Source: a virus. Taken from it: a DNA stretch of 64,000 nt. Numbering within the stretch: the stretch's first letter is position 1; the number at the start of each line of letters is the position of its first letter. The stretch is taken from the IMG/VR virus record IMGVR_UViG_3300027832_000010, positions 6,298-70,297 of that record, one strand, 5' to 3'. The translations under genes and the position numbers were made by a program. Shown in pieces: positions 38,247 through 58,991 of the stretch. The notes below the pieces were generated by a model. The model worked only from the letters and a program-made list of their open reading frames with translations, ran no database searches and was not told the DNA's origin.

Positions 38247-38254
38247 TATAAAAT
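38247..38254 (+). promoter_or_regulatory. T4-type late promoter for groES-groEL
   Basis: Exact TATAAATA, followed by AAAGGA SD and ATG 38277. Confidence 0.75.
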
Positions 38255-38276
38255 AAACAATTAAAGGAAAAGATAT

Positions 38277-38588
38277 ATGACCGAATTTACCCCAATTCGA
38301 GATAGACTACTTGTTAAAAAGATTGAAGACGAGTTAAAAACTAAATCAGGATTACAGTTATCTGATGACACAAAGGAACGTCCTACTAAAGGAACTGTGC
38401 TAGCTGCCGGTGACGGCAGAATAAATGATGACGGAAAAACATTACCGATGATTATCAAGGTAGGAGATTTAATTTTATATCCAAAATATGCAGGGCACCC
38501 AATTAAGTTAGATTTTGAAGAATATTTAATTCTCGATGAAAACGAAGTGCTGGGAATTTTAAAAAAGGGAGATAATGTAAATGGCTAA
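38277..38588 (+). CDS. groES: Co-chaperonin GroES
   Basis: [39 protein letters not shown]. Confidence 0.95.
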
Positions 38589-40251
38589 AATAAACTCAAG
38601 AATAGTAACTTTTGGAGACGATGCTCGAGATCGTCTAGTAGTCGGGGTAAATGTATTAGGTGACGCTGTAAAAATTACCCTAGGACCAAAAGGACGCAAT
38701 GTTGTTATCCAGAGACAGTTTGGTGCGCCGCACGTTACAAAAGATGGTGTAACTGTTGCTAGGGAGATATTTTTAAAGGACAAGTTAGCTGATACTGGTG
38801 TGCGAATGATTAAGCAAGCAGCAAATCATACATCAAATGAAATTGGTGACGGTACTACCACAGCAACAGTACTTGCACAAGCTATGATTCGTGAAGGCAT
38901 GAAATTCGTTAAGGCTGGCATTAGTCCGATTAACCTAAAACGTGGTATTGACAAAGCTGTAGCTGCTGCAATAGAAGAATTAATAAAAGTAAGCAAAGAA
39001 TGCAGCGATTTTAAAACAATTGCACAGGTAGCAAGTATTTCTGCAAATAACGATGACGAGATGGGAAATTTAATTGCTAATGCTCTTGTTAAAGTAGGCA
39101 AGCGTGGAGTTGTTAGTGTTGAAAATAGTACTACACTAAAAGATGAATTTATACAAGTTAGTGGACTGTCATACAATCATGGATATCTAAGTCCTCATTT
39201 TGTAAACTCTGACAAGCAACGCTGTATTTTAGAAAACCCATATATATTAATTTGCGATCGTCCAATTATGAATATGACTGATGTGTATAACATTTTAGAA
39301 AAATTAGTTCATACTAAACGCCCATTTTTAATTATAGCCGAAAGCATTGAAACTGACATTTTAGCTACACTAGTTATCAACAACCTAAACGGTGCTATTG
39401 TGACTTGTGCTGTACGTGGCCCGGATTGGAAAGGCCCTAAGCGAAGTGCGTTAATTGAAGACCTTGCAATCTTAACAGGAGGTAAAGTTATTAGTGACGC
39501 TACCGGTAAACGAGTTGAAACTGCCGAAATTGAAGATTGCGGTCAGTGCAACCGTGTAGAAATTACTAGAGATACTACAACAATTATCGGCGGACACGGA
39601 GATAAAACAAAAATACAAGAACGTATTGATAGTATACAACTGCAAGTTGATTCTGGAGAACTTGACGGAGTGTTTGGGATTCTAGATTTGGAAGAACGTA
39701 TTGCTAACTTATCAGGCGGAGTGGGTATTATAAAAGTCGGAGCAGCTACTAATATGGAGCTTGGTGAAAAGAAAGATCGTATTGATGATTCGCTTCATGC
39801 TACAAAAGCTGCCATTATCGACGGAGTTGTTCCTGGAGGAGGTGTTGCATACATTCGAATTAAAAATAGGCTTAAAGATCTTAAAGGTGCAAACGATGAA
39901 CAGACTGCCGGTATTCAAATTGTACTACGTGCAATGGAAGAACCGCTACGTCAAATTGCAGTAAATGCCGGAGATAGTCCAGACGTTGTTGTTAATAAGG
40001 TAATCGAAGGTACAGACGAGTTCGGATATGATGCTAGCAATAGCTCTTTTGGTAATATGTTTGATATTGGTATTATAGATCCAACTACAGTAGTAAAAAC
40101 TGCATTAATAAATGCAGCTAGCGTAGCTGGTCTGTTATTACTTACAGATTGTGCTATTTATGAAGACGAAGACGAATCAGACCTTAGTATTATTGGACCA
40201 TCGCCATCAGCTGGTCAAGATCTTTCTCAACATTATCAAAGTACATTTTAA
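38581..40251 (+). CDS. groEL: Chaperonin GroEL
   Basis: [48 protein letters not shown]; no GGM tail. Confidence 0.97.
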
Positions 40252-57078: not shown

Positions 57079-57089
57079 TTATTAATTCC

Positions 57090-58157
57090 TTAGTATCTAA
57101 CTACGACTATGCCAGAGCCGCCTGCGCCATGTGTTGATCCACCATTGCCGCCGCCGCCGCCGGTGTTAGCTCCACCATTGCCGCCAAATCGAGCATGGCT
57201 GTCACTGTTAGATGCATTTCCGCCTTGATTATATGCCTGGCCGCCGCCTCGACCATTACCTAATCCTGGACCAAACCCCGGAACATAGTGAGCAGCGCCA
57301 CCACCACCACCACCTACTCCGCCGTCACCACCACCGCCATCACAAATGTGTGGGCCGCTTGCGCCGCCGCCGCCCCAGTAAAGAATTTCGCCTAAAATAT
57401 CGTGTGCAATACCGGGACCACCGTGTGTGGCTTGCTGTTGATTTTCATCTTGACTGGCTAGTCCTGGACCACCTGCTCCACCACCACTACCACCATTATG
57501 TGTGTTTTCACTGTCGTCGTTAAATCTTACGCCACTACCGCCAGGAAATCCTTGTCCAGTAATACCCGGTCCTCCGGAGACTCTAAATCTATTTCCAGTT
57601 ACTCCGTCACCACTATTGCCACCTCCGCCGCCTGATCCGCCTGGACGACCCGGAGTGTTACTATTCCATACTCCGCCAGTGCCGCCACCAGTTGCGCTGT
57701 TAGGACCAAAGTTGCTTGCGCCGCCTTGTCCACCTGCGCCGGCTCCGCCGCCTACAGTTAAAGGAATTCCAACACCGGCACTTACAGGAAATGCTCTGTT
57801 AAATACTACGCCACCGCCACCACCACCACCACTCCAACTGTTTGCTCCTGCTCCTGCACCACCTGCAACTACTAATACTTGTACCCAACCGGTAAATGAT
57901 GGTGTAAAGGTGGCTGCTCCAACTGCGGTAAATTCATGTACAATACCATTACCTTTTTGATATATAGATCCGCCGGTGCCTATTGTGCCCTGACTATAGC
58001 CAGTAACTGGGCGCCAATTAGTTCCGTCGTAAAATTCTACTAAGGCAATAGTTGTATTATATCTCATCATTCCATATGCTGGACTTGCTGGGCGCTGTGC
58101 AGTTGTACCCTGAGGTAACGTTAAGTCTGTAAAAGATGATGCTAGGAGATTAGCCAT
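57090..58157 (-). CDS. Glycine-rich fibre-tip/adhesin-like protein 3
   Basis: PQGTTAQRP..GMMRYNTT..EFYDG; GQGFPGGSG; LYWGGGG; GGSGIVVVRY. Confidence 0.8.
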   Translation of the reverse strand: MANLLASSFTDLTLPQGTTAQRPASPAYGMMRYNTTIALVEFYDGTNWRPVTGYSQGTIGTGGSIYQKGNGIVHEFTAVGAATFTPSFTGWVQVLVVAGGAGAGANSWSGGGGGGGVVFNRAFPVSAGVGIPLTVGGGAGAGGQGGASNFGPNSATGGGTGGVWNSNTPGRPGGSGGGGGNSGDGVTGNRFRVSGGPGITGQGFPGGSGVRFNDDSENTHNGGSGGGAGGPGLASQDENQQQATHGGPGIAHDILGEILYWGGGGASGPHICDGGGGDGGVGGGGGGAAHYVPGFGPGLGNGRGGGQAYNQGGNASNSDSHARFGGNGGANTGGGGGNGGSTHGAGGSGIVVVRY

Positions 58158-58991
58158 TTATTTGTTGCCTTTGAGTTGATAAATTTCGTCATTTAAACTC
58201 TTAACTGCTTCAATTAGATATGCTGTTAGTTTTGTATAATGAATTCCGTCATCTTTTACAAGATTAGGTAATACTTTTTCTACTTCTTCTTTGATTAAAC
58301 CTGCTTCGCCTTTAGTACTACCATCTTTACGATCGTATGTAACACCCACTAGTTGAAGGATTGCATCGAGTGCATTTGTAATAGGAGTTATATTTTCTTT
58401 GTACGCAATACTTGAAGTTTCAGTAATAGTTGTAAATCTACCAGTACCTGCTGTAGTTGCACCAACATTAGCACCGTCAATAGACCCGCCGGAGATTATA
58501 GCCGAACCAGCTGTAATTGCTGTTACGCTTAGTCTTCCAGTGCTCGGTACAAATGATAGTTTTGAGCTTGAGGTATTAACTTCAGCAGTTGTGCCACTAG
58601 TACCTGTAATTATTGTAGGATAGTATACTGTTCCATCAGCTACTTGATCAGTAATTGATACAAATGGAGCAGCCCATGTTAATACACCGCTACCATTAGT
58701 TTGAAGCATTTGAGTATTGTCGCCGTCATTTGCTGGAAATGTCAATGTATAACTAGCACCTAATGTTGCAGGTGATTTAAAAGCAACATATGCACTAGAA
58801 TCATCATCAGCAAGTCTAAGTGCGCTACCGTCGTTAATTTGCAAATGTGCTGTAGATTCAACTATTCCAGTACCGTTAGGTTCTAGTACAACATTTGTAT
58901 TTAAAACAACTGATCGCAAACTGTTATTTAATGCAGTTAATGATCCTAATATAGACCTTCCTGATATTCCTGATGTTATTCTTCTAGCCAT
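58158..58991 (-). CDS. Short tail fibre with C-terminal intramolecular chaperone (peptidase S74-like)
   Basis: ETSSIAYKENI...GVTYD...GLIKEEVEKVLP...YTKLTAYLIEAVKSL coiled-coil end. Confidence 0.85.
   Translation of the reverse strand: MARRITSGISGRSILGSLTALNNSLRSVVLNTNVVLEPNGTGIVESTAHLQINDGSALRLADDDSSAYVAFKSPATLGASYTLTFPANDGDNTQMLQTNGSGVLTWAAPFVSITDQVADGTVYYPTIITGTSGTTAEVNTSSSKLSFVPSTGRLSVTAITAGSAIISGGSIDGANVGATTAGTGRFTTITETSSIAYKENITPITNALDAILQLVGVTYDRKDGSTKGEAGLIKEEVEKVLPNLVKDDGIHYTKLTAYLIEAVKSLNDEIYQLKGNK

Follow-up and report, generated by a model that had tools for sequence, protein, structure and literature searches.

The window analysed here (a stretch of 64,000 nucleotides of viral DNA, part of a 78.9-kb IMG/VR virus record whose completeness is estimated at ∼22%) contains a 14.0-kb block of genes for modifying enzymes (40753–54762), among them flavin-dependent halogenases and 2-oxoglutarate (2OG)-type oxygenases, next to an operon of tail-fibre genes with three glycine-rich (Gly-rich) paralogs of the Gly_rich_2 type (PF21722). 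Our comparative analysis indicates that such an array travels with Gly_rich_2 genes both in cultured cyanomyoviruses and in an unrelated jumbo-phage clade, unlike solitary halogenases; this association is the new element here. The enzyme set itself is of a kind already known from the dioxygenase-halogenase neighbourhood of Syn9 and Syn10, and the best explanation of the window is a jumbo-phage version of this cassette joined to a receptor-binding fibre module. Sequence comparison supports a functional link between the array and the Gly-rich fibre genes, and the repeated placement beside Gly_rich_2 genes allows a testable guess at the substrate of viral halogenases such as VirX1. We know of no established substrate for cyanophage halogenases or tandem dioxygenase arrays. 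Cyanophage halogenases have reportedly been known since 2005 and, to our knowledge, VirX1 is the sole characterised viral halogenase, in use as a biocatalyst and without a known natural role.

Layout of the enzyme array and the fibre module

Genes were called between 38.2 and 64 kb from a listing of open reading frames (ORFs) and from Pfam and PHROG scans. Rightward genes for GroES and GroEL are followed by a hairpin and then by a leftward unit in which three oxygenase genes precede a Tfa-like chaperone gene (ox3-ox2-ox1-Tfa); next come a rightward unit of oxygenases and halogenases (ox4-HAL1-ox5-ox6-HAL2), a leftward one (ox9-ox8-ox7) and another rightward one (methyltransferase-HAL3-248-aa protein-HAL4-broken oxygenase ox10). 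The fibre operon, convergent with this last unit, consists of a giant fibre gene, a gene for a 109-aa protein, an S74 fibre gene and the three Gly-rich paralogs (GLY1–GLY3). The enzyme genes are translationally coupled by 4-nt overlaps. Most of the inventory in the preliminary description (GroES/GroEL, the Tfa-like chaperone, four halogenases, the methyltransferase, the S74 fibre, the three Gly-rich paralogs) was confirmed by Pfam, and its estimate of about 14 kb for the enzyme block agrees with the measured extent. Its ten oxygenases can be counted as nine intact genes and one frameshifted copy; the ORF at 51849–52595 has a dUTPase fold and does not belong among them.

The tail tube of the window phage shares 38–47% identity with its counterparts in the jumbo myoviruses Phosso, Atu_ph07 and PA5oct, which identifies the phage, as far as this comparison goes, as jumbo-myovirus kin and not a member of Kyanoviridae. 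The link between array and Gly-rich genes thus spans distant lineages with a rearranged gene order. A megablast of the whole region against phage records returned no match.

Recurrence of the array beside Gly_rich_2 genes

In Syn9 the large fibre gene gp34 is followed on the same strand by gp35–37, gp38 and gp39 (both annotated 'tail fiber assembly') and then the array; gp38 and gp39, both above the PF21722 cut-off, lie directly upstream of gp41/gp42. A tblastn search with gp38 found 11 distinct cultured cyanomyoviruses, with a halogenase 0.5–2.3 kb away on the same strand in 11 out of 11. In S-RIM44 two halogenases come after a tandem triplet of Gly_rich_2 genes, and a third, solitary halogenase lies in an auxiliary-gene island. 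The gene order in Sf-CH11 (PV340848, genes 90–97) is giant fibre, Gly_rich_2, two oxygenases, halogenase, two oxygenases, Gly_rich_2, and the P4H-type and ox1-type oxygenases of the window both recur there (phmmer). The Gly-rich protein of Sf-CH11 could not itself be used to map Gly-rich genes by tblastn, because its Gly-rich part is masked and only the common N-terminal fibre adaptor was matched.

For a broader comparison, metagenomic loci (20 retrieved with the Gly-rich proteins as queries, 80 with the halogenases) were annotated with the window proteins and a Gly-rich-domain profile. The counts were restricted to loci that lie outside the close clade and have 12 kb or more of flank. With an array defined as at least two oxygenases near a halogenase, a Gly-rich gene was present at 8 of 13 arrays vs 0 of 17 solitary halogenases (Fisher p = 2.2e-4, relatedness ignored). 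For any fibre-type gene the counts were 10 of 13 arrays vs 3 of 17 solitary halogenases (Fisher p = 2.4e-3, again ignoring relatedness). The situation that the preliminary description regarded as damaging to its proposal, namely arrays routinely unlinked from Gly-rich fibre genes, is therefore found for solitary halogenases only. Close relatives of the window phage keep the whole layout, with 3–5 halogenases and a variable methyltransferase. Overall, the direction of the association looks consistent in these genome comparisons, and its proof is not statistical.

The available part of the original account of the Syn9 neighbourhood (Iyer, Abhiman, de Souza and Aravind 2010, PMC2938197) describes ten dioxygenases in tandem, drawn from no fewer than five families, together with two tryptophan halogenases and a conserved-Cys protein of dUTPase fold; it reads the cluster as a pathway for halogenated secondary metabolites and does not, in that part, discuss a fibre link. 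The window likewise contains at least two Trp-halogenase-type genes, tandem dioxygenases of multiple families and a conserved-Cys dUTPase-fold protein, and the two phages also share Gly_rich_2 genes with a large fibre gene directly upstream and late-promoter motifs before a Gly-rich gene and the halogenase operon. In phmmer comparisons the window families pair one by one with gp45/48, gp51/53, gp52 and gp54, so that four of the five window oxygenase families have Syn9 counterparts, the P4H type being the exception. On the other hand, Syn9 has two halogenases vs four in the window, belongs to Kyanoviridae and not to the jumbo-myovirus kin, and carries its genes on one strand, whereas those of the window are split over four divergent or convergent operons. 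The methyltransferase, GroES/GroEL and the Tfa-like chaperone are additions of the window with respect to Syn9. A JmjC member present in Syn9 (gp49, PF08007) is missing from the window, where no gene matches this JmjC/MINA-type family, and from Sf-CH11 also, and is thus probably optional.

Sf-CH11 resembles the window in its giant fibre, Gly_rich_2, P4H-type and other 2OG oxygenases, halogenase and ox1-type oxygenase. It differs in having a single halogenase and four oxygenases, in the position of the enzymes between two Gly_rich_2 genes, in the use of one strand, and in that no dUTPase-fold gene was detected. A more remote likeness is offered by bacterial operons, of the beta-hydroxylase/PhyH type, for which co-encoded collagen-like, Gly-rich or tail-collar proteins were proposed as substrates of the neighbouring dioxygenases; as far as the available text goes, these operons include sulfotransferases and no halogenases, and the proposal is likewise a prediction (PMC2938197).

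Some halogenase loci show other surroundings. P-SSM2 was considered as a fibre-linked case and rejected, as the 'tail fiber assembly' neighbours of its halogenase give only a sub-threshold LtfC-like match; its gene 218 (L002 11394–11831), which adjoins the halogenase and bears the label 'NAD synthetase', encodes a GIY-YIG homing endonuclease of the SegE type (PF19835, 182 bits). The 'peptidase' adjoining the S-B64 halogenase contains no S74 or fibre domain. A group of metagenomic contigs (L033–L050) carries a tandem halogenase pair, sister to HAL3 and HAL1, and lacks both oxygenase and Gly-rich genes over distances of up to 10 kb; in three of them (L033, L046, L050) a copper-site-fibre-like or giant-fibre-like gene is close to the pair.

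Gly-rich proteins and the fibre operon

All genes of the fibre operon are on the minus strand. GLY2 (55945–57078) exceeds the PF21722 cut-off of 24.3 bits with a score of 42.6 bits; GLY1 (54796–55932; 17.5 bits; phrog_2295) and GLY3 (57090–58157; 22.3 bits; N-terminal adaptor matching many fibre PHROGs) fall below it but are 54–55% identical to GLY2 (55% for GLY1, or 56% in the three-way alignment). Searches of the PDB with the GLY2 sequence and its 40-row profile gave nothing useful. The AlphaFold2 (AF2) model of GLY2 (pLDDT 83.5; matched region, residues 79–377) resembles the fibre of cyanophage Pam3 (7YPX; Z 14.2, rmsd 2.3 Å over 173 residues), the tail-tip protein of mycobacteriophage Bxb1 (9D93; Z 11.9) and the Gly-rich domain of ALK (Z 8.4), with 28–29% identity to the two phage structures over 173–185 aligned residues. 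This match to solved fibre proteins places the Gly-rich proteins on the virion, and the modelled fold identifies them as virion fibre proteins with a polyglycine-type domain; the ALK Gly-rich domain contains polyglycine-II helices. With regard to the earlier designation of the three paralogs as polyglycine adhesins, gp38 of Salmonella phage S16 did not come up in either GLY2 fold search. A weak match to phrog_863 ('tail fiber assembly') was also seen among the Gly-rich proteins.

Upstream of GLY3 lie the short fibre gene with the S74 intramolecular chaperone domain (Peptidase_S74; 58158–58991; PF13884, 46 bits), a gene for a small fibre-associated protein (59005–59334; phrog_11338 'tail fiber protein') that is syntenic with fibre genes in all related loci, and the giant fibre gene (59350–64000 in the window; phrog_9851 and other tail-fibre PHROGs). 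The last of these encodes 2556 aa and runs past the window to about 67020, as read from L106. Further upstream on the same strand is another giant gene, of 1765 aa or more (L106 3165–8705, beyond 67 kb), so that the window covers only part of the fibre module.

Halogenases

The four halogenases, all encoded on the plus strand, match PF04820: HAL1 (43524–45083) with 290 bits, HAL2 (46385–47851) with 303 bits, HAL3 (50383–51852) with 274 bits and HAL4 (52576–54087) with 306 bits. Their alignment shows an invariant GxGxxG motif, an invariant catalytic Lys (Lys76 in HAL1), which in flavin halogenases carries the chloramine, and an invariant Glu in the EPLE motif. The WxWxIP motif reads GWMWQIP in HAL1 and takes the forms GWMFKIP, GWIWKIG and GWSWRIN in the other three. 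Recent duplication does not account for the four: their pairwise identities are 24–36%, and in a tree covering 176 viral halogenases each of HAL1–HAL4 belongs to a deep subfamily of its own and has orthologs in related contigs. The labels of this tree are too noisy, owing to truncated loci, for counting origins of the fibre link. HAL4 represents a rare subfamily and groups with one metagenomic sequence only, in L101. In most close relatives (L005, L006, L008–L012, L014–L016) the slot beside the Gly-rich genes, taken by HAL4 in the window, holds a halogenase of the VirX1/Syn9/Sf-CH11 clade; this looks like a non-orthologous replacement at a fixed position.

All PDB sequence matches of HAL2 are Trp-halogenase-type enzymes, VirX1 (6QGM) among them at 1.6e-41. 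VirX1 shares the family and catalytic motifs of HAL1–HAL4 and is identical to Syn9 gp42, and so belongs to a homologous fibre-linked array. The iodination preference and trimer state are established for VirX1 alone. A published account of VirX1 describes a trimeric enzyme whose active site is large and open, which has no biosynthetic cluster associated with it and which halogenates many small aromatics in vitro (PMC8407142).

Oxygenases, methyltransferase and dUTPase-fold protein

Pfam, PHROG and BLASTP/phmmer comparisons sort the oxygenases into five families. Seven of the nine intact members have Pfam matches, while ox1 and ox4 were placed through paralogs and Syn9 counterparts. The P4H type (PF13640) is represented by ox2 (41355–42143, minus strand; P4H/PKHD-type 2OG-Fe(II) oxygenase, 51 bits, overlapping ox1 by 4 nt), for which a PiuC-type PKHD hydroxylase is the closest solved structure, albeit a weak match, and by its paralog ox3 (42140–42850, minus; 29 bits), whose true start is likely the ATG at 42757. 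The PF13759 family comprises ox7 (47848–48516, minus; 62 bits), with an uncertain start that is probably an internal ATG near 48414–48432, ox8 (48416–49027, minus; 83 bits) and ox10 (54077–54762, plus). The last of these is interrupted by a frameshift near 54575–54590, its N-terminal part lying in one frame and the C-terminal metal-site motif FP..H..V...R.S in another.

A third family consists of ox4, ox5 and ox9. The Syn9 gp51/gp53-type ox4 (42897–43508, plus; phrog_274) has an H-L-D motif at residue 134 and BLASTP matches to ox9 (7e-12) and ox5 (4e-10); ox5 (45058–45708, plus) scores slightly below the PF13640 cut-off (26.4 bits) and matches ox9 at 8e-24 (BLASTP); and ox9 (49024–49707, minus; likely start at 49641) combines a weak PF13640 match with a phmmer match of 2e-21 to Syn9 gp53. 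The DUF6445-type ox6 (45705–46361, plus; PF20043, 30 bits) matches Syn9 gp52, itself a DUF6445 protein, at 1e-13 (phmmer). Finally, ox1 (40753–41358, minus; phrog_2954; H-R-D motif at residue 99) matches Syn9 gp54 at 4e-20 and the Sf-CH11 homolog at 3e-22 (phmmer). The PHROG labels 'ferrochelatase' (ox1) and 'endonuclease V' (ox4) are inherited mis-annotations of such oxygenases.

The S-adenosylmethionine (SAM) methyltransferase (49698–50378, plus; PF13847/PF08241) is TPMT-like, scoring 42 bits and above the cut-off for PF05724, a family that includes thiol and halide methyltransferases. It is an odd neighbour for four halogenases, and among close relatives only some (L008, L010) have it. The 248-aa protein at 51849–52595 (plus) resembles DUF6065 clusters in an Atlas search and has an invariant Cys-Pro-Ala (C52-P53-A54) in the homolog alignment. 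In its AF2 model (pLDDT 88.8) the top 23 structural matches are all dUTPase or dCTP deaminase (Z 8.4 to 4.6), and its candidate assignments as an oxygenase or a flavin reductase were rejected on this account. Its profile matches Syn9 gp43 weakly (E 0.0045, probability 8%).

Late-promoter-like motifs

The hexamer TAAATA appears to be a T4-type late-promoter-like motif. In the sense orientation it lies 5–40 nt upstream of 16 of 70 ORFs vs ∼1.7 expected, and it is depleted overall (84 copies vs 117 expected). The full T4 octamer TATAAATA has just two copies in the window, so that the shorter TAAATA is the working motif; a sigma-70-type promoter scan stayed at chance level (93 vs 84). Genes preceded by TAAATA include those for the tail tube, a head-tail adaptor and a virion protein, and the lead gene of the fibre operon, the giant fibre (20 nt upstream of its ATG). 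The motif also precedes the Tfa gene (40758–40763, 32–37 nt upstream) and three of the four enzyme operons, being found before ox3 (42796–42801, minus strand), before ox4 (42870) and before ox9 (49646–49651, minus strand). Between the ox3 and ox4 units it takes the form of a divergent pair of TAATAAATA motifs (42796–42875). The shared motif reported earlier for these operons is thus real, except that 38247, upstream of groES, is only a near-match; the exact TAAATA there is at 38195, 82 nt upstream of the gene, where it overlaps the ATG of an eight-codon mini-ORF (38195–38225) that may encode a leader peptide or be due to chance.

A similar arrangement is seen in Syn9, where six ATAAATA sites occur in 40 kb, all of them in the coding orientation; an overlapping pair precedes gp38 by 22–32 nt, and a single site is found 27 nt ahead of gp40, which opens the halogenase operon. 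These motifs, present before most operons here and in Syn9, would suit late expression.

Possible role of the array and alternative explanations

We infer that the enzymes work together because the same unrelated families recur as a set, with 4-nt overlaps, late-type motifs, placement in the fibre operons of two distant phage groups and a fibre chaperone in one unit with three oxygenases. All of this likewise suggests that their work concerns the fibre module. Tailoring of fibre proteins, most likely of the Gly_rich_2 tip proteins, is the best single reading, albeit a tentative one that we put a little short of an even chance. In such a scheme TAAATA (T4-type late) promoters would drive the fibre operon, most enzyme operons and the Tfa-like chaperone late in infection. 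The halogenases would take reduced flavin supplied by the host, O2 and halide, and put a halogen on an electron-rich aromatic side chain; the oxygenases would add hydroxyl groups to side chains, with the methyltransferase perhaps capping one of the products. The substrate that these enzymes share would most likely be the co-encoded Gly_rich_2 tip proteins, or else a different product of that fibre operon, so that receptor-binding surfaces on the virion would be chemically altered. The full proposal, that phage flavin halogenases including VirX1, together with 2OG oxygenases, halogenate and hydroxylate Gly_rich_2 receptor-binding tip proteins, is possible but distinctly doubtful. No flavin reductase (PF01613) is encoded in the 78.9-kb record, itself ∼22% of the genome; flavin-dependent halogenases are usually served by host reductases.

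Two hints in the literature fit fibre tailoring. When S-TIM4 adapted to poor hosts, mutations affected fibre genes and a small number of non-structural genes, one of them for a 2OG oxygenase (PMC6224464), and the virion proteome of S-SCSM2R included a 2OG oxygenase (PMC12801897). Conserved Trp, His and Tyr loop motifs, on which the preliminary description based its choice of fibre-tip substrates, are real in alignments, although they may simply hold the fold together. The invariant residues include, in GLY2 numbering, Trp179, His83, His242, His293, Tyr283 and Tyr377. Its term RiPP-like, on the other hand, is an analogy only and should be dropped: a leader peptide, a recognition element and a maturation protease or exporter are absent among the window ORFs, and the N-termini of the Gly-rich proteins are fibre-type adaptors, not leaders. 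The flavin halogenase MibH (5UAO), from a RiPP pathway, illustrates that the same family can halogenate Trp within a ribosomal peptide; it is the weakest match (highest E-value) among the 30 PDB matches listed.

Several observations weigh against fibre tailoring. No modified fibre residue or peptide has been demonstrated anywhere, and the activity of VirX1 is known on small molecules in vitro only. Variable gene islands often adjoin fibre genes in T4-like phages, so that adjacency could reflect genome architecture. Five of the 13 arrays have no Gly-rich gene within reach, and in P-SSM2 and S-B64 the Gly_rich_2 genes are 65 and 87 kb from the halogenase. Of six independent contrasts on the anchor-halogenase tree, 4–5 point in the same direction and none in the opposite one (sign test p ∼0.13). 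The expected co-variation of enzyme number with adhesin number is not borne out: in the close clade the Gly-rich genes are always three vs 3–5 halogenases, and distant loci combine 1–3 Gly-rich genes, 1–3 halogenases and 2–9 oxygenases with no pattern. We know of no halogenase/oxygenase array in Pam3 or Bxb1, which suggests that the Gly-rich fold does not need such enzymes. Within the window, the operon of the methyltransferase, HAL3 and HAL4 has no TAAATA within 100 nt upstream, and the dUTPase-fold Cys protein has no obvious protein-tailoring role.

One alternative is small-molecule tailoring, in which the enzymes act sequentially on a free amino acid or host metabolite to give a secondary metabolite bearing halogen and hydroxyl groups (for example an antibiotic, a siderophore or a signal) and the fibre genes are mere neighbours. 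This is the published view of the Syn9 cluster, in the available part of its account (PMC2938197), and a P-SSM2-type cluster has been read in terms of a halogenated amino-acid/sugar metabolite or capsule decoration (PMC7824862); antibiotic production has also been suggested for cyanophage enzymes (PMC2984593). The closest solved halogenase relatives are all small-molecule Trp-halogenase-type enzymes, VirX1 accepts many small aromatics in vitro, and small-molecule chemistry would be a fitting context for the methyltransferase of the TPMT type and for the dUTPase-fold protein with its conserved Cys. However, no scaffold-forming enzyme is encoded in the window or in the 78.9-kb record, where neither NRPS nor PKS, ligase, ATP-grasp or carbamoyltransferase genes were found, in line with the preliminary description. 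Late-promoter motifs and same-strand insertion in structural operons (Sf-CH11, Syn9) would be odd for a metabolite pathway, and Gly-rich fibre genes accompany arrays, not solitary halogenases. We consider a metabolite product unlikely; both it and the functionally unlinked island described next are nevertheless serious rivals.

The absence of any shared substrate seems rather improbable to us. In that case the array would be a hyperplastic island of separately useful auxiliary genes, accumulating where insertions are tolerated beside fibre genes and acting on assorted host proteins or metabolites, for example in 2-oxoglutarate/nitrogen-stress signalling, translation factors or repair. Roles of cyanophage enzymes in 2-oxoglutarate/nitrogen (NtcA) signalling and DNA repair have indeed been proposed (PMC3037559). 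Single 2OG oxygenases or halogenases occur elsewhere in cyanophage genomes (S-B64, the solitary halogenase of S-RIM44, P-SSM2), and the content differs among close relatives (3–5 halogenases, methyltransferase present or absent, HAL4 in place of a VirX1-clade halogenase). A frameshifted oxygenase copy and the non-significant contrast test fit an island as well. It is harder to reconcile with five oxygenase families, halogenases and the dUTPase-fold protein recurring as a set from Kyanoviridae to the jumbo-phage clade, with the translational coupling of the enzymes by 4-nt overlaps, and with Gly_rich_2 genes on both flanks of the enzymes in Sf-CH11. Another late target, such as the host envelope or receptor (for superinfection exclusion or progeny release), another virion protein (the giant fibre or the copper-site fibre) or chaperonin clients, would agree with the late-promoter motifs, with GroES/GroEL next to the array here and near arrays in L031, L057, L080 and L082, and with non-Gly-rich fibre-type genes near halogenase loci L033, L046, L050, L051, L068 and L094, but is very unlikely, as nothing points to a particular alternative and a Gly_rich_2 gene is the most consistent neighbour across lineages.

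If fibre tailoring is true, host range would vary at a chemical level as well, which is not known for any virus, and a viral halogenase would have its first natural substrate. Halogenated or hydroxylated fibres would represent a new kind of virion chemistry, relevant to the way in which abundant aquatic phages recognise their hosts; if the fibres are not so modified, the metabolite hypothesis gains.

Chaperone genes and other features

The Tfa-like tail-fibre assembly chaperone (40289–40726, minus strand; PF16778, 43 bits) ends the leftward unit, after ox3, ox2 and ox1. Its gene is convergent with the gene for the GroEL-type chaperonin (38581–40251, plus; PF00118, 244 bits), which follows that of the GroES-type co-chaperonin (38277–38588, plus; PF00166, 92 bits), and a terminator-like hairpin with a 13-bp stem and a T run separates the two (40260–40288).

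Near-identical DNA is present in 24 DNA runs from freshwater, salt lake and estuary, belonging to many studies; there were 0 matches in the RNA runs searched for the stretch. A NUDIX hydrolase gene (36062–36550) and a small cupin gene (36561–36896; PF00190) are located between genes for a gp15-like sheath stabiliser and a copper-site fibre, the cupin being one more double-stranded beta-helix protein close to the enzyme array. In the four divergent metagenomic loci cited above for their chaperonin genes, a GroES or GroEL gene adjoins the halogenase/oxygenase array, and the chaperonin neighbourhood may thus extend beyond the clade of the window phage.

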